From a virus (lineage: Duplodnaviria; Caudoviricetes): 64,000 bases of DNA. Within the stretch, counting starts at the first letter, position 1. The number at the start of each line of letters is the position of its first letter. A program made the translations under genes and the position numbers. The stretch is from positions 96,001 through 160,000 of IMG/VR virus record IMGVR_UViG_2830161386_000001. One strand, written 5' to 3'. Positions 1 to 41,303 of this stretch are shown here, piece by piece. The notes under the pieces were generated by a model. That model did not search any database, was not told the origin of the DNA, and saw only the letters and a program-made list of their open reading frames with translations.

Positions 1-884
1 TCGCCCCCGAGTCCGGCCTCCTCCGCCGCGTCGGCCGAGAGTCGGACCTCGTTTTGGCCAGTCGAAGCGGCCTTCGCAAACGCTTCTTTGCTTCCGCCCC
101 TGGCCGAGGCGCCGCCGTCTTCTAGGTCTCCGGTTGCGGGATTGTTGATTTCGGTGCCGTCCCCGACCGGAAGGCGGCTGGTAGCGACCGCCCGGCTTGT
201 CGGGTCCGCCCGGTCTTCAACAAACGAGATATCGAAGAACTTCCCCTTCGGGTTGCGGGCGTGGACGATGTGGCCGTTGGGCTTGACCTCCAGCATGTTT
301 TTCCGGAGGTGGTCGCAGTACTCCGCCCGGCTTGAGGCCTTGTTGCCACATACGCTGCAAGTATCGTAAGCGGCCCGGAAGCCCATGCTTGTTGAGACGG
401 GCTCGTAGTTTCGGATCTTCTGCGCGATCATCGGCGCTTTGTCCGCGTTGAGGTGGGCAACCAATTCCACCCGGTCCATCTTTGGGTTGAAGAAGCTCTT
501 TTCGACCGTCCCATAGGCCGGGGAGTCGTCCCGGTTGATGTGATGCTTGTAGGGGCGGGCAAAATGCTCGAAGGACTTGTACATCGGGACTTCCAGAGAG
601 CCCTCCCCCTCCGGCGGGGTCCCGTAGTCCACGTTCCCGAGCAGGTCCTCCCGGTAAAACCCGTCGCCGTTTTTGTTCGGCCCGATCCGGTCGAACGAGC
701 TCAAGGCCGTAATCAAGAGGCGCATCGTCCCGTCGCCTGGGCTCGCGGCCTGGTCAAGATACGACCGCACGTCCGGGTGGACCTCGCTTGCGGTTTTGTC
801 CAGCGAGCCAGAGGCGGGGTGGACCAGCGCCTCTCCCGTCGCGTCCGGGCGGGAGTCGTACTGAACGAGCTTGTCTATAGCCAT
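1..884 (-). CDS. Prohead (capsid maturation) protease-like protein, 3' end runs off window
   Basis: Not in ORF track; translated manually from ATG at 884: MAIDKLVQY...GPNKNGDGF...YKHHIN...STSMGFRAAYDTCSVCGN...YCDHL...FFDISFVEDPAD. His and SMG motifs plus a Cys cluster resemble large-phage head proteases; lies in the head module. Confidence 0.7.
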   Translation of the reverse strand, partial: MAIDKLVQYDSRPDATGEALVHPASGSLDKTASEVHPDVRSYLDQAASPGDGTMRLLITALSSFDRIGPNKNGDGFYREDLLGNVDYGTPPEGEGSLEVPMYKSFEHFARPYKHHINRDDSPAYGTVEKSFFNPKMDRVELVAHLNADKAPMIAQKIRNYEPVSTSMGFRAAYDTCSVCGNKASSRAEYCDHLRKNMLEVKPNGHIVHARNPKGKFFDISFVEDRADPTSRAVATSRLPVGDGTEINNPATGDLEDGGASARGGSKEAFAKAASTGQNEVRLSADAAEEAGLGG

Positions 885-3900: not shown

Positions 3901-5122
3901 CGTATGCTCCCGCCCCTACGCCAAGCGCGCCTCCGGCCATGCCGACGTTCTTGAGGCGCTCGGCCATTCCGGCTCCTCCTTCTTCGGCCGCCTCGGACGC
4001 ACCTTCCTCTGCCGCTTCTGAGCCGCCAGATTGACTGCTTGTCCCAGACGAACTCGTTCCAGATGAGCCGCTTACCGACGATTCGTCAACCAAGTCCTCC
4101 AGCTGCTGGCCCTCCCCCCCGGAGCTAGCTGCTTCGTCTGCCCCGCCAGGAGGAGTTCTGCTCATGCTCGCGTCACTTGTCCTCGGTGCAGTTCTGCCAA
4201 AACCCACCCCCTCTATCGGCTCTACATCTGCATTTCTCATTCGCACCTGCGGCGGCGAGAGGTCAATGCTGCGAGCCGCGTCGCTGAACATGTCTGCGAG
4301 CGAGCCACGCGCCTCTTTGCTCAGTCCCAGCTGGGACTCGGTGTTGGCCTCTTTGTCGCTAACCATAATTGGGCCAAATCCCGGCTGAGAGCTCTCGATG
4401 CGGGTTTTCTCTCCCTCGTCTCGAACGGTAAAGTCTCGGGTCCGGCGCACTCCGTTTGTTGTCCGCCCCATGTCGGCCTCGAAGTCCGTTCCATCTTGGT
4501 TCACGCTCACCTCCTCGGCGCTAACTGCCTGCGGGCTTGCCCGGTCGGCAACGGCACTGCCGCCCAGCGCGCCGAGCGCCCCGCCAGCAAGCGTCGCCGG
4601 GAGGCGGTACCGGTTTGGCACGTGACGAGACGTAAAGCCCAGCCCGGCGCCAATGCCTGCGCCTGACAATACGCCGATTCCCTTGTTTACTTGGCGATTG
4701 GCCTTGTTTTGCGATGCAGCCGATACAGCGACCATGTCCTGCTTCGTGGTTGTGTCATCAGACAAGTCTTTTGGCCCGTCCGCGAGCCCGGCTGCGCTTT
4801 TCAAAAACGCGTTTTTCTCCCCCGAAGCCCTGCCTGAAGAGTCAGCTGAAGACCCAGTTGAAGCGTTGGCTGAAGAGCGAGTTGAACCGCTGGATTCGGC
4901 GCTTGGCTGCGCTGCCGGTCGGGCAGGCGGGGCCGCCCGCACGTTCGGGGTCGCCATTATTTGCTGGCGTTTTGCGTCGGCAAGGCCTTTTTCGTATCCT
5001 TGGCGGTACCCTTCCCGGCGCCCCTGCTCTAGGCCCTCTGCGCCGCCGTACAGGTAGCCCCCACCGCCTGCAAGAAGGCCGGTCCCGCCCGCAATTCCGA
5101 TCGTCTTTGGCATAGATGGCAT
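971..5122 (-). CDS. 1383-aa modular virion/internal-head protein (putative polyprotein)
   Basis: Many K-x-A motifs (FLKSA x3, KEAS, KTAD, KTAA), glycine-zipper hydrophobic segments, CPHC..CPKC zinc ribbon, two CWDGY..VPNCVP repeats; adjacent to protease. Confidence 0.6.
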   Translation of the reverse strand: MPSMPKTIGIAGGTGLLAGGGGYLYGGAEGLEQGRREGYRQGYEKGLADAKRQQIMATPNVRAAPPARPAAQPSAESSGSTRSSANASTGSSADSSGRASGEKNAFLKSAAGLADGPKDLSDDTTTKQDMVAVSAASQNKANRQVNKGIGVLSGAGIGAGLGFTSRHVPNRYRLPATLAGGALGALGGSAVADRASPQAVSAEEVSVNQDGTDFEADMGRTTNGVRRTRDFTVRDEGEKTRIESSQPGFGPIMVSDKEANTESQLGLSKEARGSLADMFSDAARSIDLSPPQVRMRNADVEPIEGVGFGRTAPRTSDASMSRTPPGGADEAASSGGEGQQLEDLVDESSVSGSSGTSSSGTSSQSGGSEAAEEGASEAAEEGGAGMAERLKNVGMAGGALGVGAGAYELSSNKQAQNEPISNVEGSTSSRQTKNKSMNPFLKSAGRSDSSFDKKAEGEQQAQRAIARQVARNRRGQRRGNAIGNGVAIGGFTGAAGGALAGSNIGSGRAAPLAMLAGGALGGVGGGYIGSRLAPESVKPSEVDVRRQGEGLYQAVYPEGNRRDIQITRSPMGGYLAQEARSRRGGRRMQQGVQEPGNPAPRTPGPEGRPLQYTDSGSPVGRAKAMHEDRPSNRKQKETKQASTNAFLKSAESPPASPKEEGKINAAATIGGSLVPFAAPVAGHIGPVYNTAMDPRSESIGRNLGDYGSRYGYSTLYGAGGGLGGAAAGAAAGGAAGGLIGGAPGAAAGAAAAGGLGALGGAGYGFYRGGIAGRKSVDDKYNDQGEVRPDEVYLGKGNESMSFESSSKDQAESSAEKEASARSFRWVEKTAEPPQKALAQHAGQGPTTKRKHPAGAKSEKARQMLKKILMMKMLRAKQQRKQQEMQRAQGTSSSEESGGASEGSSSENGSSESGSSESGSADSSSEEDSSEESGDSGEDAAEKEAAKTCPHCGGEITEEGKCPKCGKEVSPEKEANLPDSYLLTDMAKAAAAEGAFRKVAEYEVVQGEGGWYVEKESTGERQNEEPHDTKEEARDHQKALHANVDDMGKEKEASSDCGCGEKTADDSSDSDPCWDGYEQIGMKTKNGKKVPNCVPKDDSKESAKTADDDSDPCWDGYKQVGMKTKDGNKVPNCVPKDDSEKNSSTYGTFARAFAPAGSPVYLPPETETGEKIARAYDQGKISEDEAIYLGALKKAMDKKADALSKTAAPGKVYGTGMMQKAKDALGDPDNRRLLAQGLLGAGLAAGPVASGISKAIDPIRERIRYNRMMELPGRDPKLIDDNMISDEGQRKSYGIEKDAPKEEANERARRQAFSILHEHAPQLTKTPVVARKIIDKNLTAGEPQELLRDAVRKGTDELERQEKRQRVSGNRSRSMMDAAKAIQP
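1710..1949 (-). repeat. Two 120-bp tandem units encoding KTADD..DPCWDGYxQxGMKTKxGxKVPNCVPKDDS
   Basis: agtcgtcyttcggsacgcagttsggcacct at 1711 and 1831. Confidence 0.9.
4323..4338. repeat. 16-bp palindrome, in frame (SQLG) between two KEA motifs
   Basis: agtcccagctgggact. Confidence 0.95.
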
Positions 5123-5152: not shown

Positions 5153-6253
5153 TTAAAACTGACGCTTTTGCTTCTCCATGTCTTCCTCCTGCTTTCCGGC
5201 AAGCTGCCCGGCGGAGTAGCCCCCAAACCCAAGCTCAATCGTGCGCAAAAAAGGCTTCTCGGCCACGAAATTGCCGACGCCCTCCCCGACGCTTTCCGCG
5301 CCTCGTATTGTGCTTTTTGCCGTTTCCCCCAGGCCTTTCATAAAGTCTACGCCCTTGCTCCCAATGCTTGACATAATGCCGGCCTGCTTCTCGGCGAGGC
5401 CCGGGTGCACGTCGAAATCCGCCCCGCTTAGCGACTCGGCGTTTTCGGCGACCTTCGACGCAAGCCGGAGCGCCGCGGCATCCAGCGAGGCGTTGTCCGC
5501 GAGCTTTTTCAGCTCCGCGGCCTTCTTTCGAAGCGGAGCGTCTTCTGAAATTTTTGTCGGGCTACCCTCCTTTAGGTACTGCCGCTCAAGAGAATAGGGA
5601 CCGTCGTCCGGATATTCGCTTCGAGGAATCATGCCGTCGGCCTCCAGGCGGTTCAAGACGTACTCGATCACGTCTTTCCCGTGGCCTTCCTCCTTCATCG
5701 ACCGGAGCGCCTCTTTCGGGGAGGCGCCCTCGTAGATGCTATTTTTGATCTCCTCGTAGACCTCCTCCCGCTTTTGGCTGAGCTTGACGATGCGCCCTTT
5801 GAGCTGGTCGGCGGCCTGGTGGGCGATTTTTTCCGCGGCGCCCAGAAGGTGGCGGGCGTCCCGCTTCGGGCTCGGGGAGGGCACGTACTCCGCCCCGTAG
5901 ACGCCTGCAATCTTTGAGAACAAGCCGCCGTTTACGACCTCGTCGCTCTCGGGAGCAGCGGTTTTCTCGTGGCCCTCCGCAGGCCGAGGCGCAAACCCGG
6001 CGGTCTTCTCCGCCGCCTCTTTCGACCGGAGAATCTCCTCGGGCTCGGCCATTTCAAACTCGGTATACGCGCTTTCTTTCATCAGCTCCGCGTTGACCGA
6101 CCGGTTCGCGTAGTGGGCAACTCGCTCGATTTGCTGGTCGGTCAGGGACTGATCCGACGCGATTTTCCGAATCGACTCGTTTAAGGGCGTGTCGTCTTTG
6201 AGGTAAGACTCGGCGGCCTCTTTGCCGAGGGACTGAAGCGCCTCTTTGGTCAC
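5153..6253 (-). CDS. Putative head/core structural protein rich in K-x-A motifs
   Basis: 366 aa; KEAA, EKTAG, EKTAA, EKQAG; helical, lies in head module. Confidence 0.55.
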   Translation of the reverse strand: MTKEALQSLGKEAAESYLKDDTPLNESIRKIASDQSLTDQQIERVAHYANRSVNAELMKESAYTEFEMAEPEEILRSKEAAEKTAGFAPRPAEGHEKTAAPESDEVVNGGLFSKIAGVYGAEYVPSPSPKRDARHLLGAAEKIAHQAADQLKGRIVKLSQKREEVYEEIKNSIYEGASPKEALRSMKEEGHGKDVIEYVLNRLEADGMIPRSEYPDDGPYSLERQYLKEGSPTKISEDAPLRKKAAELKKLADNASLDAAALRLASKVAENAESLSGADFDVHPGLAEKQAGIMSSIGSKGVDFMKGLGETAKSTIRGAESVGEGVGNFVAEKPFLRTIELGFGGYSAGQLAGKQEEDMEKQKRQF

Positions 6254-8035: not shown

Positions 8036-8070
8036 AAGGGAAGTTGTTGGTTGGCCGGTAAGGGGCGGCG

Positions 8071-8349
8071 CTATATCGAGACGCCGGGCGTGATGTCGTC
8101 GCTTCGGTCCTGCCCTCGGGACCGGGCGAAAAGTTTCTCGAAATCCTCTTGGCGAAAGGCTTTGACCTGCCCACTCGGGTAGCGGACGACCCAATCGCCA
8201 GGGTGAACGGTGATTTTGTGCGGGCCCATTTCAATCTCTTCTGAGCTCCCGCTAATTTGCCGCGCCTCCACCTGAACGGGCTTTTGGACGGCAGGGGACC
8301 ACTGGCTCTTCTCCGGGCCATTCCAGTACTGCTCTGCGTCTTGGTCCAT
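8071..8349 (-). CDS. Hypothetical protein (PGDWVV..F..F motif)
   Basis: 92 aa, fills the gap between terminase and phosphoesterase. Confidence 0.6.
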   Translation of the reverse strand: MDQDAEQYWNGPEKSQWSPAVQKPVQVEARQISGSSEEIEMGPHKITVHPGDWVVRYPSGQVKAFRQEDFEKLFARSRGQDRSDDITPGVSI

Positions 8350-8406: not shown

Positions 8407-10248
8407 TTACCGCGCCGACACCCCCGGCGTCTCAAAGTCGCCGGGCGCGGAGTCCGGGTCCCCCGGCGCGACCTCTCCGCCTTGCAGGGTTCCGGCAATT
8501 TGCCGGTCCCGCTGGGACCGCAGGTCGGACTTGCTGCCTGCAAACACGCCGCGGCGGCGGTCTAGGCGCTCGGCGATGGCAGCGTAGTTGAGCACGTGCA
8601 CAAAATCGTCGGTGCCGGTCGACTCGTACTTGATAATTCGGCGAGCGGGGTCGACGTCTGTACTTAAATTGTAGAGATCATCAGCGAAAGGCTTGACTTC
8701 CTCATAACGAGGGAACTCAAATTCTTGATTTTCCAAGTCCACGATGAGCTGATTCAGGGTCCGGGTCTTTGGAATGATCCACTTGAGGCTCTTCTCGTCG
8801 TAGGTCGACCGGGCCTGCCCGGCCCCGCGCTTGTACTGAAACGCCGCGATCCGCTGATGGCCGAAAATCCGCATCAGGCGAAGATCTTCCTTGTACCCAA
8901 TGCCGTAGTCGGCCCCGACCCGGTTTACGTTAAAGAGCCGGATCCACTCGGTGAGCTTTTTCATGACGTGATCCGGGTCGTTGGACTGCTGGCCCCGAAA
9001 CCGGTGGGCAAAAATGAGTTTGAGGTTTCCCCGCACCTTCGCGAACACCGCGAAGATCGTGTAGCTGGGCACCTCCTCGTCGGAGGCCTGCATCGCCCAG
9101 TCTAGCCCCGCGTACGTCTGCCGCCCGCGAAACCGCTTGGCCACCTCCCGGATGCGCTGATCAGAGCTGGGCAGGTCGTAGTCCTCGGTGCAGCTTTTAA
9201 CCATCTCCTCGGTAATCGGCACCGTCCCGGAGTCGTAGGGCAGGGCCATGACCTCGTTGTAAAACCGCCGCTCCGACCAGTCCTCCAGCCGGTCTAAAAT
9301 CCCGTCGTCCCGGTCGGTGCGCCACTGGGCCCACGGCATCATCATTCGCACCACGCGGTACCCATCGTACTTTCCGTCCGGGTTGTGGGCAACCCACTGC
9401 CCATTGGGCGGCACCCGCTGGTCGGCCGTCGACCAGGAGGGGTCGTACATGTCTCGCCCGCAGTGCTCGCAAAACAAGTAGGGGCGGTCCCGGTCCAGGT
9501 GCTCCATCCCGAGCGGGCTGTTCCAGCCGCCTTTCCGCCGATCTCGGCCGTTGGGCCCGGTTTTTCCGGTCGGCTCCGAGCAGTGCGGGCACTGGATGTG
9601 CCACTGGTACTGACGAGACCGATTCCACTGGCGCTCAATCAGGTTTTGCTTCGAGAGGGGCGTCCCGGCGTACACGTAGAAGGCCTGGCGGCGCCCGTCT
9701 TGGCCGTCGAACGTGGCGGCGGTGGACTCAATAACCGGCACGTCCTCCTGCAAGAGGCTTTGAAACTCGTCGAGGTAGATGTCATTGGCCGTGATTCCTC
9801 GGATCCGCTCTGCCCCGCTTGCGCCGCCGGTCGAGCGCAGGGTAATGCGGCTCGTGCCGCGCCCGACCCGAAACTCTTTGACACCGACGTTCCACTTCGT
9901 GTCGTTTGTCGTAAAGGCCTCTTTCAGCTTCTTTCGGTACGTGAACGTCGTTTCCAGCTTCTCGTCGTTGAACGTCCGGAGCTGGGTTGTTGTCGGGGCA
10001 ACCACTAAGGACTTCGATCCGGACTTCATAAGCGAGCGCCCCACGGAAAAATTCCGCAGTGTCGTCGACTTAATCGACTGCCGGGACGTATACAGGAGAA
10101 GCTTGTTGCGAGGCTTGTCGTAAACCGGCTTGTAGAACGGCATCCGGTCCAGGGCCCACCGCCGCCCGTCGTCGGTGGTGAAGATCATCTCGCAAATCTT
10201 ATGAAACGGCAAGTCCCGTGTCGGAAACTGCCGGAGAGACGTGCCCAC
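8407..10248 (-). CDS. terL: Terminase large subunit, GpA family
   Basis: SRQSIKST deviant Walker A, IYLDE Walker B, AGTP, CPHC/CEHC zinc motifs, AGLDW and DDFVH nuclease acidic residues. Confidence 0.88.
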   Translation of the reverse strand: MGTSLRQFPTRDLPFHKICEMIFTTDDGRRWALDRMPFYKPVYDKPRNKLLLYTSRQSIKSTTLRNFSVGRSLMKSGSKSLVVAPTTTQLRTFNDEKLETTFTYRKKLKEAFTTNDTKWNVGVKEFRVGRGTSRITLRSTGGASGAERIRGITANDIYLDEFQSLLQEDVPVIESTAATFDGQDGRRQAFYVYAGTPLSKQNLIERQWNRSRQYQWHIQCPHCSEPTGKTGPNGRDRRKGGWNSPLGMEHLDRDRPYLFCEHCGRDMYDPSWSTADQRVPPNGQWVAHNPDGKYDGYRVVRMMMPWAQWRTDRDDGILDRLEDWSERRFYNEVMALPYDSGTVPITEEMVKSCTEDYDLPSSDQRIREVAKRFRGRQTYAGLDWAMQASDEEVPSYTIFAVFAKVRGNLKLIFAHRFRGQQSNDPDHVMKKLTEWIRLFNVNRVGADYGIGYKEDLRLMRIFGHQRIAAFQYKRGAGQARSTYDEKSLKWIIPKTRTLNQLIVDLENQEFEFPRYEEVKPFADDLYNLSTDVDPARRIIKYESTGTDDFVHVLNYAAIAERLDRRRGVFAGSKSDLRSQRDRQIAGTLQGGEVAPGDPDSAPGDFETPGVSAR

Positions 10249-11825: not shown

Positions 11826-14800
11826 CTACTCCGTCATGTCCACGTCGGTGTCCCCCTGGTCGTGGTCCATCGTCTCGGGGTCGATGTCCTGCATGTCCGG
11901 CGTGGACTGGACGTCCGGGGAGCCCATCTCCATTTCCTCCGGCATCTCCGGGTCCGGCATGTCAAAATCGAACCCTTCTTCGAAAAGGGATGGCTCGTCT
12001 TCTGCCGTAGTTATGGTGCCGTTCTGGTCGGCATATTTGCGTTTCTGAGCGGGCTGCTGGCCGCCTGAGCGGTTTACGTAGCTGTAGCCCCCGTACCCGG
12101 CGGCCCCGGTCAAGCCCGCTCCTATGATCGCGTCACTCATCTGACTGGCCCGCGCCTGGCCGGAAAGCGGAACCCGAAACTCCGTGTCCGTGCCGCCTGT
12201 CGATTCGGCCCGAGAAAGGTCCACCGGGCTCACCTCCGACACCGCGTTGGCGTCGGTCGTGTCCGCGACGCCGGGCATTTTATTCGGCACCTCCAGCTCG
12301 TCTCCACCGGATTTGATGCCGGGCACGAGCCGCCGGCCCTCGTCGGTCGCGACCTCCCACATCTCGGGCCCGTCGCCGTTTCCGGCAAACACGACATTAT
12401 CCCCGTTCATGTCCGGCCCGTTGAGCTTTTCCGGGCGGGCCCGGACCGTCGGGTTCGGAACCCCATCCACGTCTTGAAGGAAGTTCTCAAACTTGCTCGG
12501 AGAGGGTGCGTCGGTCTTATTCGCGAACTGGACAAACGCGTCCGCTACCTTTTTTTTAGAAGCCTCTTTTCGCTGGGCACTTGCCGCAGCGGATTCCTTG
12601 GAGAAAAGCCCAAAGAAGCGGTTGTCTTTTGCCTTCTGGGCCAGCTCGTCGAACGACTGGTTTGTGTCGGAAATCTCGTCGGCCACCCCTTCCATTCGGT
12701 CCATAAATTCGTCCGCCCTGGAGGTCCCCTCATCTACGTTTCGGCGCACGTTTCCGAGATCCTCCGCCGCGCTTTGCATATCGCGGAAGGCCTGGTCTGC
12801 CTCGTCCATGGTCCGCTTCGCCTGTCGGCCGAGGTCCCGGGCGCGCCCGGCAAGTTCCCGCCCGCCGCGAATGGCCGCCGGGCCTGCTGCTCCAAGCGCC
12901 CCACCAACAGCGCCGGACCGGGCGAGCCGGTACGGGTCAATCCGCTCTTGCCGGCCGGAGCGGATTTCTCCCCTTTGCTTCGCGTAGTTGAGGCCAGTTC
13001 CGGCCGCCCCGCCTGCAAGCCCGCCGCCAACCGCAGCAAGTGGCACGGCGCTTTTGCCCATGCTGGCTCTCTTTGTTTGCGGGCCGCTCCCCGGCGGCAT
13101 CTCTTCAAGGGCCTGGTTTCGCACTTCATCGTTCAGGCTTTGTGTCGGCTCTGGGTCTTCGGTAAGCTCGTCACTTAAATGCCGAGCACCCTGGTATGCA
13201 CCGTATCCGCCAAGGGCCGCTCCTCCAAGAATCAATGGCGATGCCGCACCGGGTTTGAGGTCCAACTTTGAAGCAAGCCCCGCAGCTCCAGCCCCACTAA
13301 CTGCTCCACCAGATAGCGCCCCCAATGCACCGTTTAGGCTTTTTGCCTGCTCTTTGCGGCGGCGACGACGACGATTTTCCGTTCGTTTTTGGGCAAGTTC
13401 TTTTGCACTTGCGTCCAGCTCTGGACTAGCTGGTCGAGAGGCTTTTACCCCCCCACCAATTTGACGCTGAACATAAGTACCATCTGGGCGCATTGTTACC
13501 GCAGAATCAGCCGGCATTCCCGATACAAGTGGCCGCCGCTCACTGGACGCCTCTTTATGGACATCTACCGGCTTTTGATCGGTCTTCTCCCAGTCCCCCT
13601 CTCGGATTTTCTCTCGAACCGCGTCGGGACGCTCGGTCCACGAGGCGTCATCGGTCGAGAGCTCAACCGTATTGTCTCCGACCCCCTCGACGGTTACCAT
13701 CTTGTCGTTCAGATGCGAGTAGTACTTGCGCTGCGCGATAATTGGCGGAGACGTGCTCCCAGTTTTTTCCTCGACAAACTCCTCTGCGCTTACGTTTTCG
13801 GGGCTATAATACTCGATTGTGTCCATATTCAGCCTAGCTTCGCTTCCGCCTAGAATCCCGCCAAGAGATCCTGCAAGACCCCCGCCTATCATGCCTTCCG
13901 CCGGATTCATATCTATCTTCCGGACCGCTCTCGCTCCACCAGCGCCCCCAAGAACGAGTCCTCCAGCAAGCCCTACGAGCGGAAGAGCGTCTCGAATCGG
14001 TTCTGTAATTTGCTCGTTTTTGTGCTCAGCAACGAGCCTATCGGAATCTTCGTGCGCCGTAAGCGGTACGTATCCAGTCATGTTGCCGCTCCGGATGTTT
14101 CTGCGGGGGGCCTCATCAACACCGCCCTTCATTTCCGATACGCTTGAGGCCGTCTGGTTTGGGGGCGTGTACTTGTGCGGCTCCCCAAACCCGTACTCGT
14201 ATGTGGGCGTGGCGCTGGCCTGCTCGTCCATATATTCGGCCCGCTCCTTAACAAAATCCGGGCCGCGGCGACTCCACGTTGATATCATCCGTGCTTTCGT
14301 CGGGTCCTCCGCGCTTACGCTTTCGGAGTAGCTATCAAAAGCAGTTTTTTCCTTGCCCTTACTAAAAGATGCCTCTTTTGCGCCAAATACGGGCCGATAC
14401 GCCGTTGACCCGTCCTCGCGCTGAACCTCTTCCGTCCCAGTGACAATTTGCTCTGAGGGGCCTTCAATCTGTCGCCCGAGTCCAGCCCCACTATATCCCC
14501 CTGCAACCGCAAGCGCGGGAATTCCAATTGCTGCCGCAACCGGCTCATATCGACGTGGAACCGCTCGCGTTAGTCCCGCTCCCGCAGCCCCGCCTGCAAG
14601 GCCCCCTCCCATTGCCCCGGGCAGCTCGGCTCCAGTAGACGCTTCAACTTCTCCCATATCCCGCGCCTCTGCTCGGGTATGGTACCCCTTTTGGGACGCC
14701 TCCTTTCCCACGCCTGGCGGCGCAACGTCTCGGAGCGTTGGGCCTGACGGCTCTGTTTTTCCAATTAGCTTTCGGACTTGTGGCCCTAAAGACGCCCCCG

Positions 14801-15353
14801 CACCTGCGCCCAGCGTTGCCCCCATAGCGACTTGCCCCCCTTTTGAGTCAGCAATATAGTCAAACGTATCGGTGCCATACCCCAGGCCCGCTCCAGCACC
14901 TATGCCTATTGCTTCATCTGCGAGATAGGTTTTAGCCGACCCCTCTTTTTGCCCCGTGACGCGGCGCACCTCGTCTTCTCCCATCACGTACACATCGGCC
15001 TTAACGGAGTCCATCCCAAGGCGATCTGCCGCTAAAACCCGGTGGTGCCCGTCCATGAGATGATGATCCCCCTCAATCCGGACGACTTGCACCGGGTCTT
15101 CCTCCCACTCCTCGACGTTTGAGAGCATCCAGCCGAGCTTTTCGACGTCGTAGGTCCCTTGGGCCCCGTAGTCAATCTTGCCCAGCGATAGGTCTTTTTC
15201 GGTTTGCTCCGGGCTACGGTGGTTCATAATTTTCTTCCGCCGGTGGAGCGTTACGAGCGGCGACTTGTCGAGGCGCTCAATCGGGGCGGTGCTGTCGCGG
15301 GACTTCCCGCTACCGGGGCCGCCGCTGGATTTAAGAAGTGTAGGTCGGTCCAT
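11826..15353 (-). CDS. 1175-aa modular protein: N-terminal ParB/Srx-like domain plus multiple glycine-zipper modules (putative polyprotein)
   Basis: PVQV..HHLMDGHHRVLAA..G...V.A ParB-N signature near 14980-15190; KEAS x4, EKTAF, KSAV motifs; GxxxG arrays. Confidence 0.65.
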   Translation of the reverse strand: MDRPTLLKSSGGPGSGKSRDSTAPIERLDKSPLVTLHRRKKIMNHRSPEQTEKDLSLGKIDYGAQGTYDVEKLGWMLSNVEEWEEDPVQVVRIEGDHHLMDGHHRVLAADRLGMDSVKADVYVMGEDEVRRVTGQKEGSAKTYLADEAIGIGAGAGLGYGTDTFDYIADSKGGQVAMGATLGAGAGASLGPQVRKLIGKTEPSGPTLRDVAPPGVGKEASQKGYHTRAEARDMGEVEASTGAELPGAMGGGLAGGAAGAGLTRAVPRRYEPVAAAIGIPALAVAGGYSGAGLGRQIEGPSEQIVTGTEEVQREDGSTAYRPVFGAKEASFSKGKEKTAFDSYSESVSAEDPTKARMISTWSRRGPDFVKERAEYMDEQASATPTYEYGFGEPHKYTPPNQTASSVSEMKGGVDEAPRRNIRSGNMTGYVPLTAHEDSDRLVAEHKNEQITEPIRDALPLVGLAGGLVLGGAGGARAVRKIDMNPAEGMIGGGLAGSLGGILGGSEARLNMDTIEYYSPENVSAEEFVEEKTGSTSPPIIAQRKYYSHLNDKMVTVEGVGDNTVELSTDDASWTERPDAVREKIREGDWEKTDQKPVDVHKEASSERRPLVSGMPADSAVTMRPDGTYVQRQIGGGVKASRPASPELDASAKELAQKRTENRRRRRRKEQAKSLNGALGALSGGAVSGAGAAGLASKLDLKPGAASPLILGGAALGGYGAYQGARHLSDELTEDPEPTQSLNDEVRNQALEEMPPGSGPQTKRASMGKSAVPLAAVGGGLAGGAAGTGLNYAKQRGEIRSGRQERIDPYRLARSGAVGGALGAAGPAAIRGGRELAGRARDLGRQAKRTMDEADQAFRDMQSAAEDLGNVRRNVDEGTSRADEFMDRMEGVADEISDTNQSFDELAQKAKDNRFFGLFSKESAAASAQRKEASKKKVADAFVQFANKTDAPSPSKFENFLQDVDGVPNPTVRARPEKLNGPDMNGDNVVFAGNGDGPEMWEVATDEGRRLVPGIKSGGDELEVPNKMPGVADTTDANAVSEVSPVDLSRAESTGGTDTEFRVPLSGQARASQMSDAIIGAGLTGAAGYGGYSYVNRSGGQQPAQKRKYADQNGTITTAEDEPSLFEEGFDFDMPDPEMPEEMEMGSPDVQSTPDMQDIDPETMDHDQGDTDVDMTE

Positions 15354-15392
15354 TAGTCAAGTCTTGCTTTGTAGGGCGCTTGCCCAGTCTAT

Positions 15393-18300
15393 CTACAAGC
15401 GGGGAATATCTAGCTCATTATCGACTTCGCGCTTGTACTGCTTGTACCGGGGCTTCGCGAGCACATAGGCGTCTTTGAGGCGCTTTTTCTCCCCAATGAT
15501 GCGCCCTCGGTCCTCCGGCGTTAGCTCCTCGTTTGCCCGGTCGAAGCTCTCAACGCGCTCGTCAACGTGGGGGCCGTGGCCAACGACTACGTCCATATCA
15601 TCGCCGTCAACGGTGCCGGACATAACGTACACTCCGTCTCGAAAACGGTTGTACGGGCTGCTTTCCAGGTCGGTAAACTTCTCCCGCACCTCCTCAATTT
15701 TGCTTCGGTACTCCTCGTCGCTGCCAGTTGGAATCGTGACGTCGATGTCAGAATCGTCATCGGGGACGTTAATGCCAAGTCCCATCGAGCCGTGCAGGCG
15801 CACCTTTTCGCCGAAGAGGTCTTTAAGCCGGTCTTGATCCGGCGCCTCCTCCTCTGCTCGCCGGGCCAGGTCTCGAAGCTCCTCTTTGTCTAGGTCCAGG
15901 TTCCCGTACACCTGATCTCGGAGCTTCGATACTGCCGACATGACCGTATCTGGGGCAGCAGTTTTCTCCTTTGCTGATTCGTTCAAATGTTGATACGCGC
16001 CACCAGCTAACGCCACGCCTCCTGCTCCGAGTGCCGCTCTAATACTGCCTTTATTCATCCGTTGAGCATTTCTGCCCAACCGCCCCGCCTCTTGACCCAC
16101 CTCGTAAGTCTGCAAGTACATTTTACGCAATTCACGTTCTTCTGGCGTAAACCCGTTTCCAAAACGAGAATTAGCCAGGTTTTGAGCCCGGTCCCACGCT
16201 CGCCGCTCTTCTCGTACTAAAGACGAATCAGGGTTTTTGCCCATTAGATCCTGCAAAACACCAGCTTGATCAGACTTCAACTTCTTGGTTTCTTTGAACC
16301 CTTCCAGCTCCCCATCAAAATCTTTGAAGTTCTTAAAGTGTCCAAGCTCATGCAAAAAACCAGCTCGATTTGAAGGCTCACTAACCATTATTCTTAGACT
16401 TTCTGAATCAGGTGTGATTGAGCCGGTGGCCGAATCTGATATACCAAATGCATCTTGTTTCCCTTTAACGACTTCGCCCGCAAAACCTTCTTGCCTCGCT
16501 AGATCCGTTGCCGCCTCAATGTTAGGGGCATCAGGCGCCGAACGCTCTAAATGTCTTGCTCGTGATCTCACTTCTCGCTTTAGATCGTTTTTGAGATTCT
16601 TCTGTGCCTCATCATAGTAAATGTGACCACCACGCATTGCCAAAGAGCCCGCCCCGAGGGCGCCTGCCGCAGCGCCGGCAGCCTCATCAACCTCAATTGA
16701 ATCGCTACCAGAAAATCCTTCGTTTTTATCGTCTACCGCCCCCTCTTTTTCGGCAAGATAGGCTCCTCCCGCCAAAGCCGGAGCCCCAACCATCCCAGCT
16801 CTCCCGGAACGGCTCAACCCCCGCCCCACTGACTCCAAACCTGATTGAACTTGCTTCAAGGGTTGCCGAAGAACGCTATCATAAGATTGGGCTGAGCCCT
16901 TTGTCCCTTCTACCATGCGGTGATAAGAGAGCTCTTGAAAAACGTCATGTGCCGCCCCTCCTGACCCCTTCATAATCTTAGATTGCTCCTCTGGCGCAAG
17001 CGATTTCAGGTCCTCCACGCTTGAGACGTCATAGCCCATTTTTTGCGCCTTCCCGAGATAGTTTTGCAAATGGGCCTCACGTCCGTTCAGATCGGAAGGG
17101 TCAGTATCCGAAGAAACACCAAGAGCTTCTTGTACTACGTGCTGAGCATCTTCAGCAACATTTCCGCCTGAAGACCCTGATTCTTGAATGGCTTTCTCTA
17201 CCTTCTCAGACAGGCTGCGAATTGACTCGTCAGGAACGTCATTATATTTGAATCCTTTTTTCAGCTCTTCATCTAGGGCGCTCATATAGTCTTCTCCACT
17301 TGCAGCCCGATTTTGCGCTGCCATTCGTGCTCCAATAAGGCGCTTACCCGTGTCTTCGACTGGATCGTCAAAGCTCTCTCCGTAAAACTGCGCGTGTCCG
17401 AATATCGGCCCTTTTTCAAACGCATCGTAGTGCGCCCGTTCAGCAGTTTGCGGCAACCCAGTCTGGTCTGAGAAATTCCGCATTGCCGGATTGTTAATAG
17501 CAGACATCATATCTGCCCCCGACACCTCACGTCCAGATATAGGAACTCGAAACTCTTTCTCTCGAAGGGTTCTTGATCCCGACTCAAAGTACTGATTCAT
17601 TGCCCGGGTGGGATCGTCAATATTTCTCATGCCCCCTACTTCCTCAAACGAATTAAGCCCTTTTTCTGTGACCAGTTTTGCACGGTCGGATTCAGGAAGG
17701 CGCTTTCCAGCAGCGTCCGTTGCTTTCCCCCCGGCCATGCCCACACCAGAAGCTAAACCAGTTTCTTCTTCTGAAAGCTGGTCGTCACCTAAGTCAATGC
17801 CACTAAGAGATAAGTCGTTTAATCCCAGCTGGGACTGAGGGGCCGCTTCTTTTTCTGCCTCTTCCTTTCTTTTTTCTGCTTCTTCCTCCAGAAGCTTAAT
17901 CAGCTGGTCGCTCAGTTCCTGCTTCTCTTTTGCGAGACCCTGAATGTACTCCTCGACCGAACCGGTCATGGTTTTGTCCCCGCCGAACACCGACCGGACG
18001 GCGTTGGACACCGATTTTTCGGGAAGCTCGGAGACATACCGTTTCACGTCGACTTGCCGCTCCTCCTCCGGTAGGCCCTCATGGCTTTTGTACCGGTCGG
18101 CGCGGGCAACCACCTGGTTGATCTTCTGCTCGTTCCAATGGGGCTCCATCACGTGAATCTCGTTTACCGCGTCGAGGTCAAGCCCCTCCCCGCCGGCCGA
18201 CGACATCACGAGGGTAGAGAGTTCTCCTTCGTTAAAGCGGCGCACGTCTTCTTCACGCTTGGACTGAGACGTGCTTCCGGTATACTCCCCGTAGTCAACG

Positions 18301-21300
18301 CCCTTCTCGTCGAGAACGGCCCGAAGCGGGTCAAGCCCGCTTTCCAAGAAGTTTGAGTAGACGACCTGCCGTTTCGAGGAGTCGTCTACCGCCTCCGCAA
18401 TCTCTTGAACCTTGGGGGAGTCCTGCCCGGCCTCAAGATCGGAGGCGTCCTCGTCAAACGCGTTGATTGAAGTTGCCACCTGGCGCGGCCCGTTCAGAAA
18501 CTTCATCATCTTGCCCCGCTCGTCCTTGTCCGGCGGCAGGTTGCTCTGCACCTTCCACCGGAGGTGCATCGGAAGGTCTTTAAACATGTACCGGTACGCG
18601 TCTTTCTGGCGCTTAGACATCGGCACGCTGACCTCCTCTTCCTCGACGTCCGGGTAGTTTTCGTTGTCGCGGTCCGGCTCGTAGTAGTCGACGTACTGGC
18701 GGAGCGGCTTTCGGAGGCTCTCCTTGCCGGTCTCTAGCTTTTTCTTGATGCCGGGCGTGCCGCCGGTTACCCGGTAGGCCAGTCCGCTTAGGCCGCCTGG
18801 ATACTCCTCCTCTTCGCGGACGTACTTCGTCTCGAATCGGGACTTGGTCTCCGGCAAAAGGTTTTCTCCTGCCGAGATGTTGACCAGAGGAGAAATCTCG
18901 TGCGGGTGGTTGTATACCGGAGTTCCGGTCATAAGCAGGTTCTTTTCCGCCGGGGTCTCCCGGAGGCGCTTCTTAAACTTGCTGCCCGTCGAGCGGGCGC
19001 GGTGGGCCTCGTCAACCACCCGCATGTCGGTTTTCTCGTCTCGGGGGCCCTCCATCGTGGCCTTCGTGTGGCTTTTTGGCTGGGGCGTGCCGCCGGTAAT
19101 GCCTTCATCGGTGTGCTTTTCAACCTCCTTGCGGAAGTTTTCCCGAAGGGAGGCCGGCGTTAGCACCCGCAGCATCGAGTCGGGGTCTTCTTGCCGAACG
19201 TCTTCCAGCGCGCTAATTGCGGATAGCGTTTTCCCAGACCCCATGTCATGAGCAGCTACAAGACCTTCTTGATTTTGCAAACGGTCCCGTACTCTCTTTT
19301 GGTGGGGCCGAAGCTCCGTGTTCAGATCTGAGTTTTTTTTAATTGAAGACTGTTTGTCTATGGCTGGCCTTCCATAACGCTCATTTGCTACGGCCATTTC
19401 TTTCGTCAATCCAGTTTTGGCCTCACGCTTTTCTGTAAGGCCGGAGTTAAAATCCATTGGCGCTGCCCTGGCGGTTTTTTCACCTTGTTGCATTGCTTCG
19501 TTAGCTGCATACCCACTAGCGGCAAGAAGGCCAAGCCCGGCGCCTCCTTTCCCAACCCCCTTTGCAAACCGACCCGAGTTCTTCCTTGCGTATTCCATCA
19601 CCTCATCGACGCTCAAGGGGTTGTAACCATCGCTTCCTTTGATATACTTGGGGTCGATGCCATGATCAAATACCCGAGATTTTTCTAATTCACGAAACTC
19701 CGCCCGGTGCTGCATCTGTCGCCCGGGAATATCAGCAAGAGGGTCCGTTTTTTTCTTCTCCACCAGAAATTCGTCAAGATTCCCGCCAGTTTCTGGGTTC
19801 GTTACTTCATTAATTTCCTCTTTCCACGTTGGAACTGATATATCAACTCGTTCCCCCAATCCCATTCCCGGAACCTTAACGCGAAGCAGCCCAAGCGGGT
19901 CTTGCATAAGCTTCTTCGGACCACCTGCAACAGCTTGCTCCCCGTACATTTTTGCTTGTGCCTTTTCCGGGGTTGTATACGTTTTACCCTTCGACTCTTC
20001 AAATACACTGGGCCGCTGGAATTCTAACCCCCCAAGATTTGGCCCAGACCCTTGCGAGGGCCTGAGGCCCTCTTGCCGAATTGACGCTGCTGCCTCTGGA
20101 GTAGTACCGTGATAAAGGGTTTCTCGGCCCGTGATGTCAGGCTTGGCAGACTCAAAAGTCTTTTTGCTTCCATAAAGCCCTGCGGCTGAGAGCCCAGCAA
20201 GCTGCTTATCTTTATCTAAGCCAGCTTTATCACTCACAAGAAGACGCTCCGAATCTGCTGTCTTTTCCGACCCTTCAACCACGTCTTCAAGATCGTACCG
20301 GGCCGACTCGTCTGCGTCTTGGTCCTCTGGCCAGAGGTCTTTTATCGACCAGTGATTGGCCGAGTGCGGGTCGTCTTTCGTGGGGTTTCCGTCCCCGTCG
20401 GTAATGCCCTTCGCTCGGGCAAGATAGTTTTGCTTCGCGTCTTCGCTGTAGTTGTGCTTGTGGTCGGAGGAGCCGTAGTGAATGAGCTTCACGCGCTTCT
20501 CCCCGTCTACATCTTTTGAGGCGAGCACCGCCCGCTTCTTCCCGTCTCGCCAGGACTCAACCGGCTGGTCAACCGGCATCCAGCGGCCCCGATATTTTGC
20601 CTTGGTCGTCCCGTTTTCCTCTTCAGTCTCTAGGTCTTTTAGTTGCCGCGCTCCCTCTTTCAGAAATGCCTTGTCGCTAGCGGTTTTCTCGCTTTGCAGT
20701 CCCAGCTGGGATCCTATGGCTTGACCTGTTTCGTTCTGGGCCGATTCCTTTTGCATTCCAGGCTGGACTTGAGGCGAGACGCGGGCCCGGTTTGGGCTCA
20801 GGCGCTGGGACTGCGGCGCGAGCGGACCGGCGGGGTGCCCTACGTTTTGCGCCGCCCGCTCTACGCGGCGCTGCTCCCGGCGCTCCTGCGGAGACAGTTT
20901 GACGTTCGGCTGCGTAGCGCGGTAGCCGTAGTTTCCCGCCAGCCCGGCGCCGGCGGCAAGCCCCGCTCCTGCGAGCGTTTTCCCGTCTCGCTTTAGCGCC
21001 TCCCCCGCGTCGCTGATGCCACTAGAAATCGAGTCTCCCGCCTCCCGCATCGACTGGCGGAACTGAAAGCCCAGGTCGTTGTCGACCATTTTCTGCCCCG
21101 CCTCCATGCGCATGTCTCCAAAGAGGTCCTCCACGCGGCCAGTCGCCTCCTCTGCCGACATCGACTCGGTCGGCGGCGCGTCTCCCATCTCTTGTCGTTT
21201 TTTGAACTCGCTCAAGGCGTCTTCGAAGCTGGGCATGCTCACGTCATCGCCCATGCCAAAGAGCTTTTTGCCCTTATTTAGCGCCGCTCCAAATACACTC

Positions 21301-21911
21301 CCTTTCGCTTCTTTCAAGGCAGACGCCTCTTTACGGCCAAACTCCGACTCTTGGCCGGCGGCCATTTGCCGGCCGGAATCCGCCTCTTGTCGAGGCGTCA
21401 CCTGCGGGGCGGGTGAGCTGCTCTGCGAACGCTGCATTTGATAGGCACTCTGCCCGCCGCTCAATTGGCCGGGCGCAGCTCTTGGAGCCGTCCCCGTGTA
21501 CATGTCCTCGTCCTCATCGAGAAAGTTGCTAATTGCGCGCTGCCCGGCGTAGGTCGCCGCACCTGCGCCAAGGCCCATCCGGGCTGCCCGCCGGCCCACG
21601 CCGCCTTCGACAAAGGGACGTCCTATTGACTTTAGAAAATTAGGCACATCGGCGTTCTTAAGACGGTCTAGCGATTCGGTCTCAGGCGAGGGCTTGGCCG
21701 CCTCGATCCCGCCGAAAATAATGGCCGACCCGGTTGCCTCACCGATGTCCTTTTCCTGCCCCTTCGAGAGGCCCCCGGCAAAGTCCTTCCGCTCCTCGTC
21801 GGCAAACTCAAGAAGGGCATTCCCGCCTTGGCGTGGCGGCGCCTGCCCCATCGTAGGGCCTGGGTCGGCAGCGGGACGGCCAGAAGAAATGTCGTTTTGA
21901 TCAGTAGGCAC
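15393..21911 (-). CDS. 2172-aa multidomain protein: SNF2 helicase, ART-like (YHGT), zincin (HELGH), Pol-beta nucleotidyltransferase
   Basis: HDMGSGKT, VVDEAH, MTGTP, GGEGLDL, QVVARADR helicase motifs; TLYHGTT..IRQEGLRP; FLHELGH; LHGS..DSDIDV..DMDV; modules bounded by EKTA/EKEA. Confidence 0.85.
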   Translation of the reverse strand: MPTDQNDISSGRPAADPGPTMGQAPPRQGGNALLEFADEERKDFAGGLSKGQEKDIGEATGSAIIFGGIEAAKPSPETESLDRLKNADVPNFLKSIGRPFVEGGVGRRAARMGLGAGAATYAGQRAISNFLDEDEDMYTGTAPRAAPGQLSGGQSAYQMQRSQSSSPAPQVTPRQEADSGRQMAAGQESEFGRKEASALKEAKGSVFGAALNKGKKLFGMGDDVSMPSFEDALSEFKKRQEMGDAPPTESMSAEEATGRVEDLFGDMRMEAGQKMVDNDLGFQFRQSMREAGDSISSGISDAGEALKRDGKTLAGAGLAAGAGLAGNYGYRATQPNVKLSPQERREQRRVERAAQNVGHPAGPLAPQSQRLSPNRARVSPQVQPGMQKESAQNETGQAIGSQLGLQSEKTASDKAFLKEGARQLKDLETEEENGTTKAKYRGRWMPVDQPVESWRDGKKRAVLASKDVDGEKRVKLIHYGSSDHKHNYSEDAKQNYLARAKGITDGDGNPTKDDPHSANHWSIKDLWPEDQDADESARYDLEDVVEGSEKTADSERLLVSDKAGLDKDKQLAGLSAAGLYGSKKTFESAKPDITGRETLYHGTTPEAAASIRQEGLRPSQGSGPNLGGLEFQRPSVFEESKGKTYTTPEKAQAKMYGEQAVAGGPKKLMQDPLGLLRVKVPGMGLGERVDISVPTWKEEINEVTNPETGGNLDEFLVEKKKTDPLADIPGRQMQHRAEFRELEKSRVFDHGIDPKYIKGSDGYNPLSVDEVMEYARKNSGRFAKGVGKGGAGLGLLAASGYAANEAMQQGEKTARAAPMDFNSGLTEKREAKTGLTKEMAVANERYGRPAIDKQSSIKKNSDLNTELRPHQKRVRDRLQNQEGLVAAHDMGSGKTLSAISALEDVRQEDPDSMLRVLTPASLRENFRKEVEKHTDEGITGGTPQPKSHTKATMEGPRDEKTDMRVVDEAHRARSTGSKFKKRLRETPAEKNLLMTGTPVYNHPHEISPLVNISAGENLLPETKSRFETKYVREEEEYPGGLSGLAYRVTGGTPGIKKKLETGKESLRKPLRQYVDYYEPDRDNENYPDVEEEEVSVPMSKRQKDAYRYMFKDLPMHLRWKVQSNLPPDKDERGKMMKFLNGPRQVATSINAFDEDASDLEAGQDSPKVQEIAEAVDDSSKRQVVYSNFLESGLDPLRAVLDEKGVDYGEYTGSTSQSKREEDVRRFNEGELSTLVMSSAGGEGLDLDAVNEIHVMEPHWNEQKINQVVARADRYKSHEGLPEEERQVDVKRYVSELPEKSVSNAVRSVFGGDKTMTGSVEEYIQGLAKEKQELSDQLIKLLEEEAEKRKEEAEKEAAPQSQLGLNDLSLSGIDLGDDQLSEEETGLASGVGMAGGKATDAAGKRLPESDRAKLVTEKGLNSFEEVGGMRNIDDPTRAMNQYFESGSRTLREKEFRVPISGREVSGADMMSAINNPAMRNFSDQTGLPQTAERAHYDAFEKGPIFGHAQFYGESFDDPVEDTGKRLIGARMAAQNRAASGEDYMSALDEELKKGFKYNDVPDESIRSLSEKVEKAIQESGSSGGNVAEDAQHVVQEALGVSSDTDPSDLNGREAHLQNYLGKAQKMGYDVSSVEDLKSLAPEEQSKIMKGSGGAAHDVFQELSYHRMVEGTKGSAQSYDSVLRQPLKQVQSGLESVGRGLSRSGRAGMVGAPALAGGAYLAEKEGAVDDKNEGFSGSDSIEVDEAAGAAAGALGAGSLAMRGGHIYYDEAQKNLKNDLKREVRSRARHLERSAPDAPNIEAATDLARQEGFAGEVVKGKQDAFGISDSATGSITPDSESLRIMVSEPSNRAGFLHELGHFKNFKDFDGELEGFKETKKLKSDQAGVLQDLMGKNPDSSLVREERRAWDRAQNLANSRFGNGFTPEERELRKMYLQTYEVGQEAGRLGRNAQRMNKGSIRAALGAGGVALAGGAYQHLNESAKEKTAAPDTVMSAVSKLRDQVYGNLDLDKEELRDLARRAEEEAPDQDRLKDLFGEKVRLHGSMGLGINVPDDDSDIDVTIPTGSDEEYRSKIEEVREKFTDLESSPYNRFRDGVYVMSGTVDGDDMDVVVGHGPHVDERVESFDRANEELTPEDRGRIIGEKKRLKDAYVLAKPRYKQYKREVDNELDIPRL
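17821..17836. repeat. 16-bp palindrome, in frame (SQLG) just after EKEAA
   Basis: aatcccagctgggact. Confidence 0.95.
20698..20713. repeat. 16-bp palindrome, in frame (SQLG) between KESA and EKTA
   Basis: agtcccagctgggatc. Confidence 0.93.
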
Positions 21912-31284: not shown

Positions 31285-31415
31285 ACGTCCTCGGTGTTGA
31301 TGAAACGAAAAACAGATAAGGGGCGCACTTCGCCAAAGAGAAGCGGCACCCAGGGCGGGCGCCGCGGCTGAAGTCAGTTGCAAAAAATCAGTTGTAAAAA
31401 AGGCTACGAAAATGG

Positions 31416-41182: not shown

Positions 41183-41230
41183 AGGGGCGCTGTTTGCTCT
41201 GAAAAAGCCAAATGTAGAAAGAACAGTTCG

Positions 41231-41303
41231 TAGGCCCGGCAGGACTCGAACCTGCGACTTTCCGGTTAAAAGCCGGAAGCTCTGCCAACTGAGCTACGGA
41301 CCT
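41231..41303 (-). tRNA. tRNA-Lys(UUU), CCA not encoded
   Basis: AGGTCCG TAGCTCAGTTGGCAGAGC T TCCGG CTTTTAA CCGGA AAGTC GCAGG TTCGAGT CCTGC CGGGCCT A folds as a cloverleaf. Confidence 0.96.

Follow-up and report, generated by a model that had tools for sequence, protein, structure and literature searches.

The window analysed here is a stretch of 64,000 nucleotides (positions 96,001 to 160,000 of the viral record IMGVR_UViG_2830161386_000001), and its subject is a single open reading frame (ORF) on the minus strand that encodes several dissimilar enzyme-like modules in one chain. Positions below are those of the window unless the genome is named. The parent contig is one sequence of 197,771 bp with zero N and ~61% GC, and parts of the ORF were found in runs from hypersaline lake, brine, and saltern metagenomes (nine studies). 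Genome-wide PHROG matches include a DnaB-like helicase, a DnaC-like loader, RIIA, a DNA polymerase, and baseplate and tail proteins. The source is a large tailed phage whose replication genes are suggestive of a bacterial host; the possibility of an archaeal one was considered, but the matches to the DnaB-like helicase, the DnaC-like loader, and RIIA favour a bacterial one.

The ORF (Table 1) starts before the upstream gene, which encodes 319 aa, has ended, the overlap of start and stop being 11 nt; both the GTG start and the overlap are kept in a metagenome relative (L003; 87% identity over residues 4-163). A second assembly of the probable source run (~70x) yielded a Logan contig of 197,695 bases that is identical over 14800-22600 (0 differences), and a 647-base contig from another study (X5 record 19) bridges the junction between the nucleotidyltransferase and the preceding insert at 15968. 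In the protein collection, the gene call P0002 (1220 aa, 15393-19055) begins at Met953. This is a truncated call and not a break, because Met953 falls after SNF2 motif I (891) and before motif II (967); it is suspected that the low-GC3 stretch upstream depressed the gene finder's score and so gave this start. As P0002 starts inside SNF2, annotation-based searches would miss the N1, B2, and ADP-ribosyltransferase (ART) modules. Whole-protein tblastn against phages matched the SNF2 core alone, in 71 records of which none had at least 80% coverage and none was a P1 sequence. Viral contig scans with the whole protein and with B2 plus ART retrieved no relative, and a metagenome scan gave a single 1.4-kb locus.

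The first-pass annotation had described, from N- to C-terminus, a glycine-zipper block, a small KRAVLA..KLIHYG..SANHWS domain (here B2), a YHGT domain resembling Tpt1 and ADP-ribosyltransferases, a complete SNF2 helicase, a block of no recognizable kind (here B5), a HELGH metallopeptidase, and a GS-x-DxD-x-D Pol-beta nucleotidyltransferase. This outline was recovered in one ORF of the same extent, with every quoted motif in its place: KRAVLA at residue 459, KLIHYG at 475, SANHWS at 517, YHGT at 600 (20103-20114), GSGKT at 891, DEAH at 967, HELGH at 1854 (16338-16352), GSMGLG at 2041, DIDV at 2055, and DMDV at 2105. The domain calls were upheld as well, except that the metallopeptidase is a candidate. 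No second copy of any module was found within the genome.

Table 1. Features of the ORF and of the genes around it (window positions).
Feature	Positions	Strand	Residues	Remarks
Whole ORF	15393..21911	minus		2172 aa, GTG start, uninterrupted
N1	21483..21824	minus	30-143	conserved N-terminal module with Gly-zipper-like segment (103-123)
EKTA 1	20679..20690	minus	408-411	before B2
B2 (KRAVLA..KLIHYG..SANHWS)	20274..20600	minus	438-546	phrog_220 match
EKTA 2	20256..20267	minus	549-552	B2/ART border; another study's contig diverges here
ART-fold module	19518..20138	minus	592-798	ends in Gly zipper (782-806)
EKTA 3	19470..19481	minus	811-814	after ART module
SNF2-family ATPase	17886..19322	minus	864-1342	Pfam matches and intact motifs
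B5	16800..17684	minus	1410-1704	mostly helical, conserved; H1494-Y1495..F1498..G1501 invariant
HELGH module	16020..16511	minus	1801-1964	H1854-E-x-x-H1858 and E1901-E1902; candidate zincin-like metallopeptidase
EKTA 4	15957..15968	minus	1982-1985	HELGH/nucleotidyltransferase border; P0034 resumes here
Pol-beta superfamily nucleotidyltransferase	15402..15827	minus	2029-2170	G2041-S2042, D2055-x-D2057, D2107
Low-GC3 segment A	19188..20297	minus	539-908	GC3 0.46; ART, linker, first ~48 SNF2 residues
Low-GC3 segment B	15951..17888	minus	1342-1987	GC3 0.44; B5 and HELGH
Ribonucleotide reductase large subunit	27559-31605	minus		interrupted by intein with LAGLIDADG endonuclease domain
1175-aa gene	11826..15353	minus		two EKT[AG] strings; partly low GC3
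Large terminase subunit (TerL)	8407..10248	minus		
614-aa protein	6350-8194	minus		directly after TerL; calcineurin-like metallophosphoesterase domain in C-terminal half
366-aa gene	5153..6253	minus		two EKTA strings
1383-aa gene	971..5122	minus		two EKTA strings, Gly-zipper and zinc-ribbon matches; candidate co-processed head-module protein
652-aa protease gene, N-terminal part	3..884	minus		head-maturation-protease domain; extends past the window's left edge

The central module is, by family hidden Markov models (HMMs) and motifs, an SNF2/SWI2 ATPase. Pfam scores exceed the cut-offs for SNF2-rel_dom (PF00176; 59.4 bits against 24.9), Helicase_C (PF00271; 52.3 against 23.5), and ResIII (29.7 against 22.5), phrog_62 matches at E 1.3e-51, and none of motifs I, II, III, V, and VI is disrupted (GSGKT, DEAH, TGTP, SSAGGEGLDL, and QVVARADR). 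Among proteins of solved structure, vaccinia NPH-I is nearest to it in sequence (E 1.8e-11), with Rad54-like and Chd1 proteins next, and its best phage match is Arash gp217, which adjoins genes for RNA polymerase (RNAP) beta subunits.

The C-terminal block scores 20.6 bits against the 21-bit cut-off of NTP_transf_2. An exhaustive HMMER search with residues 1361-2172 returned 80 proteins at E <= 0.001 (42 at <= 1e-10), nearly all over this block. The relatives of the NTase number ~70; among 20 of them that were scanned, NTP_transf_2 was matched at E <= 0.001 in five and its cut-off reached in four. Conservation across 45 sequences is complete or at least 90% at G2041-S2042, D2055, D2057, D2107, and K2142. 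A Pol-beta nucleotidyltransferase (NTase) is confirmed by these sequence comparisons at the superfamily/family level, with the catalytic G-S/D-x-D/D residues conserved; no subfamily is claimed, because contact with the CD-NTase profile is confined to the G-S..D-x-D stretch (E 0.016).

With regard to the ART block, single-sequence matches were marginal (PARP, E 0.11; Tpt1, E 0.3). It has 14 free-standing relatives of 251-433 aa, and in the resulting 15-sequence alignment Y600-H601, N705-P706-E707, Y756, E770, and R781-F782 are invariant, the pattern being H601, then an aromatic side chain at position 645, and N-P-E at 705-707. An AlphaFold model of the block has a mean predicted local distance difference test (pLDDT) of 71.8 with a confident core. 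Foldseek against the PDB gave nothing at E <= 0.001, and its top rows were pertussis-like toxins, KptA, and Rhs ART toxins at probabilities of 0.95-0.99. In a second structure comparison all 50 rows listed were Tpt1/KptA or ART toxins, the first 12 being Tpt1/KptA NAD lobes, while in BFVD one match reached E 5e-4 and the named rows comprised a phage 'RNA 2'-phosphotransferase', DarT, PolyVal ART, and PARP domains. The model is accepted as an ADP-ribosyltransferase fold closest to the Tpt1/KptA NAD lobe, the individual scores being middling and the weight coming from their coherence; it presents the strand-1 His, strand-2 aromatic, and strand-5 acidic residue of the superfamily. In contrast to the Tpt1/KptA RNA 2'-phosphotransferases, alignment is limited to model chain residues ~88-181, their N-terminal lobe lacks a counterpart, and Pfam PTS_2-RNA (PF01885) scores 11.6 bits, below its 26-bit cut-off. 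Since the NAD lobe alone aligns, the block is not a Tpt1 orthologue. ART-PolyVal was a language-model lead (rank 4, score 0.81), with BFVD rows named PolyVal ART at E 0.15-0.28, and even at E <= 10 hmmscan was silent for the ART-PolyVal (PF18760)/Tox-ART-HYD2 clade, which is marked by an H-Y-D active site. No Pfam family reached threshold for the ART, B2, B5, or HELGH modules. A genome contig scan with the ART alignment, in which one peptide pattern was used, gave no relative.

Two modules of the N-terminal part bear on the question of the virion. B2 matches phrog_220, 'minor head protein and DNA pilot', at E 1.8e-25, and its best annotated match lies at residues ~517-621 of gp012 of the cyanophage CL131 (Aphanizomenon phage; 47% identity, E 8e-22). 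Pfam finds Phage_portal_3, InPase, and Phage_Mu_F in gp012, so that B2 belongs to head-anchored polyvalent proteins. N1 is a candidate carrier or anchor; its HMM matches P0003, P0009, and P0039, and it is N-terminal in the latter two. The glycine zippers extend well past one block: seven Gly-zipper-like segments flank the modules (103-123, 309-334, 782-806, 1383-1403, 1698-1717, 1743-1765, and 1952-1974).

The two modules between SNF2 and NTase were characterized by their conserved patterns. In six aligned segments, which come from four proteins, HELGH[YF]K.F and a downstream EE.[RK]AW (E1901, E1902) do not vary, and the predicted secondary structure (a helix, three strands, the HELGH helix, and a later EE helix; the model has a pLDDT of 50) follows the layout of helix, three strands, HExxH helix, and Glu helix given for polyvalent metallopeptidases (PMC5512222, section 8). 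The HELGH block is thus a candidate zincin-like metallopeptidase: it has the conserved HExxH...EE pattern and this predicted secondary structure, and profile and fold searches gave no zincin match. B5 is kept in seven other fetched proteins with an invariant core H-Y-D-A-F-x-K-G-P; it had no Pfam, NCBIfam, or PHROG family at a meaningful E, no Atlas match, and no PDB profile match. A profile search with alignment A3 retrieved the window's own protein alone. Structure searches with the B5+HELGH model were left unused, the VIA-wide search giving generic helical hairpins and Foldseek helical enzymes at a TM of ~0.1.

The composition of the ORF is that of a mosaic. Segmentation of the GC content at third codon positions (GC3) by the Bayesian information criterion gave five segments: residues 1-538 (0.70), 539-908 (0.46), 909-1341 (0.78), 1342-1987 (0.44), and 1988-2172 (0.70). 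Across the genome's ORFs the median GC3 is 0.725; values below 0.50 occur in 19 of 571 windows of 250 codons, and 14 of those 19 fall inside this ORF. A near relative, the fragment P0034 (~95% identical; 278/294 over residues 1074-1367 and 183/191 over 1982-2172), joins SNF2 directly to NTase and is without the 614 residues 1368-1981, that is, B5 and HELGH. As this gap nearly coincides with the second low-GC3 segment, B5+HELGH was either inserted in frame recently or, as a less simple alternative, lost from P0034 by a recent deletion. For segment A, the composition suggests recombination within the conserved start of SNF2 with a lower-GC ART-SNF2 donor. Loose ends of single low-depth contigs at 20254 (X5) and 17823 (X3), which by eye diverge right after EKTA-D553 and G1363, fit cassette borders. 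Three further observations were not used. A loose end at 19259 (X2, X3) was rejected as a module border, because its translation by eye shows these SNF2 residues in a diverged, homologous form; a joint in X3 from 19463 to 20311, which would skip the ART block, has a shorter side of 24 letters; and depth in the metagenome runs is lower over both low-GC3 stretches, but the depth of contigs does not allow the parts of one gene to be ranked.

The mosaic is paralleled among relatives, whose architectures were read with HMMs built from the ORF's modules. All seven modules recur in different orders (NT, NTase; ZN, HELGH): N1-B2-ART-NT in P0039, B5-B2-NT in P0045, B5...NT in P0043, ART-NT in P0038, N1-ART-B5-ZN-B2 in P0009, B5-ZN-ZN-B2-B5 plus a 'DGHHR' ParB-like stretch in P0005 and P0006, SNF2-N1-B2 in P0003, SNF2-NT with Peptidase_C39 in P0078, P0087, and P0099, NT-SNF2 in P0104 and P0092, and NT-SNF2...ART in P0089. 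InPase occurs in the SNF2 relatives P0007 and P0010, the former also with LigD-type modules. SNF2-NTase recurs as a pairing, since 7 of 20 scanned relatives of the NTase have SNF2 or Helicase_C. ART-NTase is probably a second one: when the N-terminal halves were taken from 34 NTase proteins of two domains, hhalign matched them to the ART profile with a probability of 75% (E 2.5e-5, 113 columns), while comparison of the whole alignments gave 49% over 20 columns. These 34 NTase-family proteins (within P0040-P0108; 290-440 aa) have an N-terminal ART-like domain (H.T...FLT...N..P.E) and a C-terminal NTase, and the members scanned have no Pfam name.

A short string marks several of the joints. The first-pass annotation had spoken of KxA-bounded blocks; a string does lie at module borders, and in its actual form it reads EKTA. 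Four copies of EKT[AG] occur in the ORF against 0.11 expected (none of 2000 shuffles reached four), all of them between modules. Genome-wide, the 169 ORFs (60,974 aa) contain 14 copies, and ten of these fall in four genes of the block around and including this ORF. Codons vary between copies, which argues for selection on the peptide. Among relatives, P0003 and P0039 have two copies each and P0034, P0005, P0006, P0009, and P0043 one each, and none of the 13 copies in these eight proteins, the ORF included, lies inside a module. The string also recalls the start of free-standing ARTs: 6 of 14 begin M.NK[YF]LEK[IL][AG], for which ~0.01 is expected per protein, the ART genes of L012, L013, and L015 start MNKYLEK[VI]A, and the internal EKTA at 549 aligns with this N-terminal signature. 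Cuts after each Glu would yield computed products of 42.9, 16.0, 28.2, 128.7, and 21.7 kDa. It was reported that the T4 gp21, phiKZ, and SPN3US proteases cleave after Glu, within short motifs of head and ejection proteins, and that in the T4 prohead short N-terminal propeptides target internal proteins, Alt losing seven residues (cited parts of PMC9026906 and PMC10052503). Our reading of the pattern is that EKT[AG] may be a processing and/or targeting signature and that the ORF may concatenate once-separate internal-protein genes. Past the right edge of the window, a 144-aa minus-strand ORF (window 64463-64897; genome 160463-160897) has a tandem EKTGSEKTAD string near its N-terminus.

The gene lies in a packaging and head block. 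On the minus strand the order is the ribonucleotide reductase gene with its intein, three unassigned genes, this ORF, the 1175-aa gene, two small genes, TerL, the 614-aa protein, the 366-aa gene, the 1383-aa gene, the 652-aa protease gene, further genes, and a 3827-aa ORF. The place right after the large terminase, here taken by the 614-aa protein, is often occupied by a portal gene. The 652-aa protein matches phrog_18299 at E 1.2e-7 and is a candidate processing enzyme, and low GC3 in parts of the 1383-aa and 1175-aa genes indicates that they may also be mosaic. Outside the genome under study, free-standing ART genes were located on 13 viral contigs (22-384 kb, 30-54% GC), and in six of these loci (L012-L017, four distinct sequences) the ART gene is directly upstream of a homologue of the 652-aa protease (E 1e-27 to 1e-29). 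In phages, polyvalent proteins are encoded close to late genes (PMC5512222, section 32), and the gene context fits a virion-associated role of the predicted protein. On seven IMG/VR contigs (L018-L024; ~30% GC, 58-384 kb) there are two tandem ART-cassette paralogues, some interrupted by stops, and ~1 kb downstream of the ARTs a 314-aa ORF weakly matches the HELGH-module HMM (E 3.7e-4). Elsewhere in the genome, the 3827-aa ORF downstream of the head genes (genome 78156-89636, minus) has one weak 'tail protein' match (E 8e-9). A 2453-aa ORF (genome 171201-178562, minus) matches six 'RNA polymerase beta subunit' PHROGs over different parts and could represent the split multisubunit RNAP of phiKZ-like phages fused into one chain. 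A single tRNA-Lys (anticodon UUU; 41230-41303, minus) lies amid nucleotide-metabolism genes.

Taken together, the ORF is probably a phage-type polyvalent protein, that is, a late protein encoded in the head module, in which enzyme modules independent of one another are strung together. Disparate activities (SNF2, ART fold, Pol-beta NTase) are combined in one polypeptide, and the gene is phage-encoded near late and virion genes, with TerL, a prohead protease, and, further on, tail genes. In the mechanism we propose, recombination with lower-GC relatives would have added two stretches, the ART module and B5+HELGH, to a resident core of N1-B2 and SNF2-NTase. The protein would enter the prohead through its N-terminal part and/or B2, and would be cleaved at the EKT[AG] strings between modules, more likely by the neighbouring prohead protease, with the ORF's own HELGH module as the alternative. 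The pieces could then leave the virion along with the DNA. In the infected cell, the ART would move ADP-ribose from NAD+ onto a host target or a nucleic acid, the SNF2 motor would track along DNA, and the NTase would nucleotidylate a target. Packaging, cleavage, and injection of the product are each put forward as what locus and sequence would predict.

Several observations weigh against this account. By Pfam the ORF itself has no MuF or portal domain, although B2 does occur in a portal-InPase-MuF protein. The family of the 652-aa protease rests on one PHROG match (E 1e-7), with no PDB sequence match, and the zincin call has neither a profile nor a fold match, the 614-residue B5+HELGH model being of pLDDT 50. 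The EKT[AG] copies of P0005, P0006, and P0009 represent a single homologous site, which means that the 13 copies lack independence, and the string is absent from the SNF2/B5 and B5/HELGH borders, so not every module would be freed. In addition, the closest relatives of the SNF2 core are transcription-linked, namely NPH-I and the Arash helicase beside RNAP subunits, and an intracellular role also fits.

Among the alternatives, the best, which we regard as rather unlikely, is that the protein is packaged but uncut and that the 237-kDa chain acts whole, EKT[AG] being N-terminal relics of once-separate genes or neutral linkers. N4 virion RNAP, ArdC, and TraC1 are transferred at full length (PMC5512222, section 8), two module borders lack the string, and a fusion relic would likewise account for its resemblance to free-standing ART gene starts; on the other hand, the peptide is kept despite varying codons, is kept in distant relatives, and shows enrichment in neighbouring head-module proteins as well, although these have no module in common with the ORF. 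Somewhat less probable still is an unpackaged intracellular transcription or recombination factor, in which SNF2 would work with the phage RNAP as RapA or NPH-I does and the other modules would be accessory. Beyond the two transcription-linked relatives, the RNAP-like 2453-aa ORF speaks for it, as does a jumbo-phage survey whose cited part ties such SNF2 helicases to phage RNAPs (PMC7824862). However, the gene sits in the packaging/head block with the RNAP gene ~54 kb away, B2 is common to the portal-MuF protein, and ART relatives adjoin prohead proteases. Moreover, NPH-I is itself packaged, as is the virion RNAP according to the SPN3US paper (cited part of PMC10052503), and a transcription link is therefore no argument against packaging.

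A more specific proposal, for which we see only a slim chance, is that the ORF is a polyprotein of former internal head proteins, with the EK[TI]A propeptide as the cut-and-join point, and that its modules form a nucleic-acid-end chemistry kit capping the injected linear DNA or early transcripts against host exonucleases. If so, the ART, being Tpt1/KptA-like, would ADP-ribosylate terminal phosphates, the NTase would tail or nucleotidylate 3' ends, and SNF2 would track the incoming genome. The idea draws on the recurrent ART-NTase architecture and the recurrent SNF2-NTase fusions, and has a further lead in that the closest folds of the ART model are KptA complexes, some titled 5'-phospho-ADP-ribosylated DNA. 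Finally, an assembly chimera or mis-joined ORF, which the first-pass annotation had allowed for and which sharp GC3 shifts and the Met953 gene call might suggest, is refuted to the point of a negligible probability by the difference-free second assembly at ~70x and the contig of another study across 15968, the low-GC3 stretches moreover running in frame over 370 and 646 codons and encoding modules of related polyvalent proteins, and a start at Met953 splitting a conserved SNF2 domain.

Returning to the reading as a phage polyvalent protein, the class itself is already known (cited parts of PMC5512222). Particular to this locus are the SNF2-NTase core in place of the described SNF2-methylase dyad, the definition of ART, B2, B5, and HELGH modules that stay below every Pfam threshold, the way in which composition and a near-identical relative together catch the gain of a cassette, and a border string that links internal joints, free-standing N-termini, and neighbouring head-module proteins. 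It is predicted that polyvalent proteins act in the infected cell before any other phage protein, and their evolutionary assembly and virion processing have been mostly conjecture. The locus suggests a model in which propeptide-bearing internal-protein genes would be captured in frame and their products then released by protease.

Among known systems, the earlier suggestion of an injected host-takeover or anti-defence toolkit holds in part, in that the ORF matches the phage polyvalent class, any host-takeover or anti-defence activity being putative, while T4 Alt and P1 DarB, then invoked, are analogies and not relatives. The cited parts of PMC5512222 list SWI2/SNF2 ATPases, ARTs, Pol-beta NTases, and HExxH metallopeptidases among polyvalent modules, and shuffled modules near virion genes, as well as relatives with InPase and ParB-like modules, are further points of likeness. 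Unlike the SNF2-methylase dyad described there, the recurrent SNF2 partner here is an NTase, and the Pol-beta NTases treated there are mainly those of firmicute conjugative elements in ArdC-N fusions (section 12), as opposed to phage SNF2 proteins. CL131 gp012, itself head-anchored and multi-domain, has B2 in common with the ORF; no further module is shared, and the ORF is without its portal and MuF domains.

As described in section 14 of PMC5512222, P1 DarB is large, associated with the virion, and equipped with an SNF2-type helicase module, features that the ORF would share. A DarB-like dyad was not found, there being no methylase family among the Pfam or NCBIfam matches, whereas DarB is defined by an adenine methylase partner. 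With T4 Alt the ORF shares an ART encoded with head genes, and the N-terminal signature of its free-standing ART relatives, together with a brief motif that contains Glu, resembles the T4 propeptides cut by gp21 (cited part of PMC9026906). In contrast to Alt, which belongs to the R-S-E clade (PMC5512222, section 9), the ART here has the H/aromatic/N-P-E pattern and forms one module of a 2172-aa chain.

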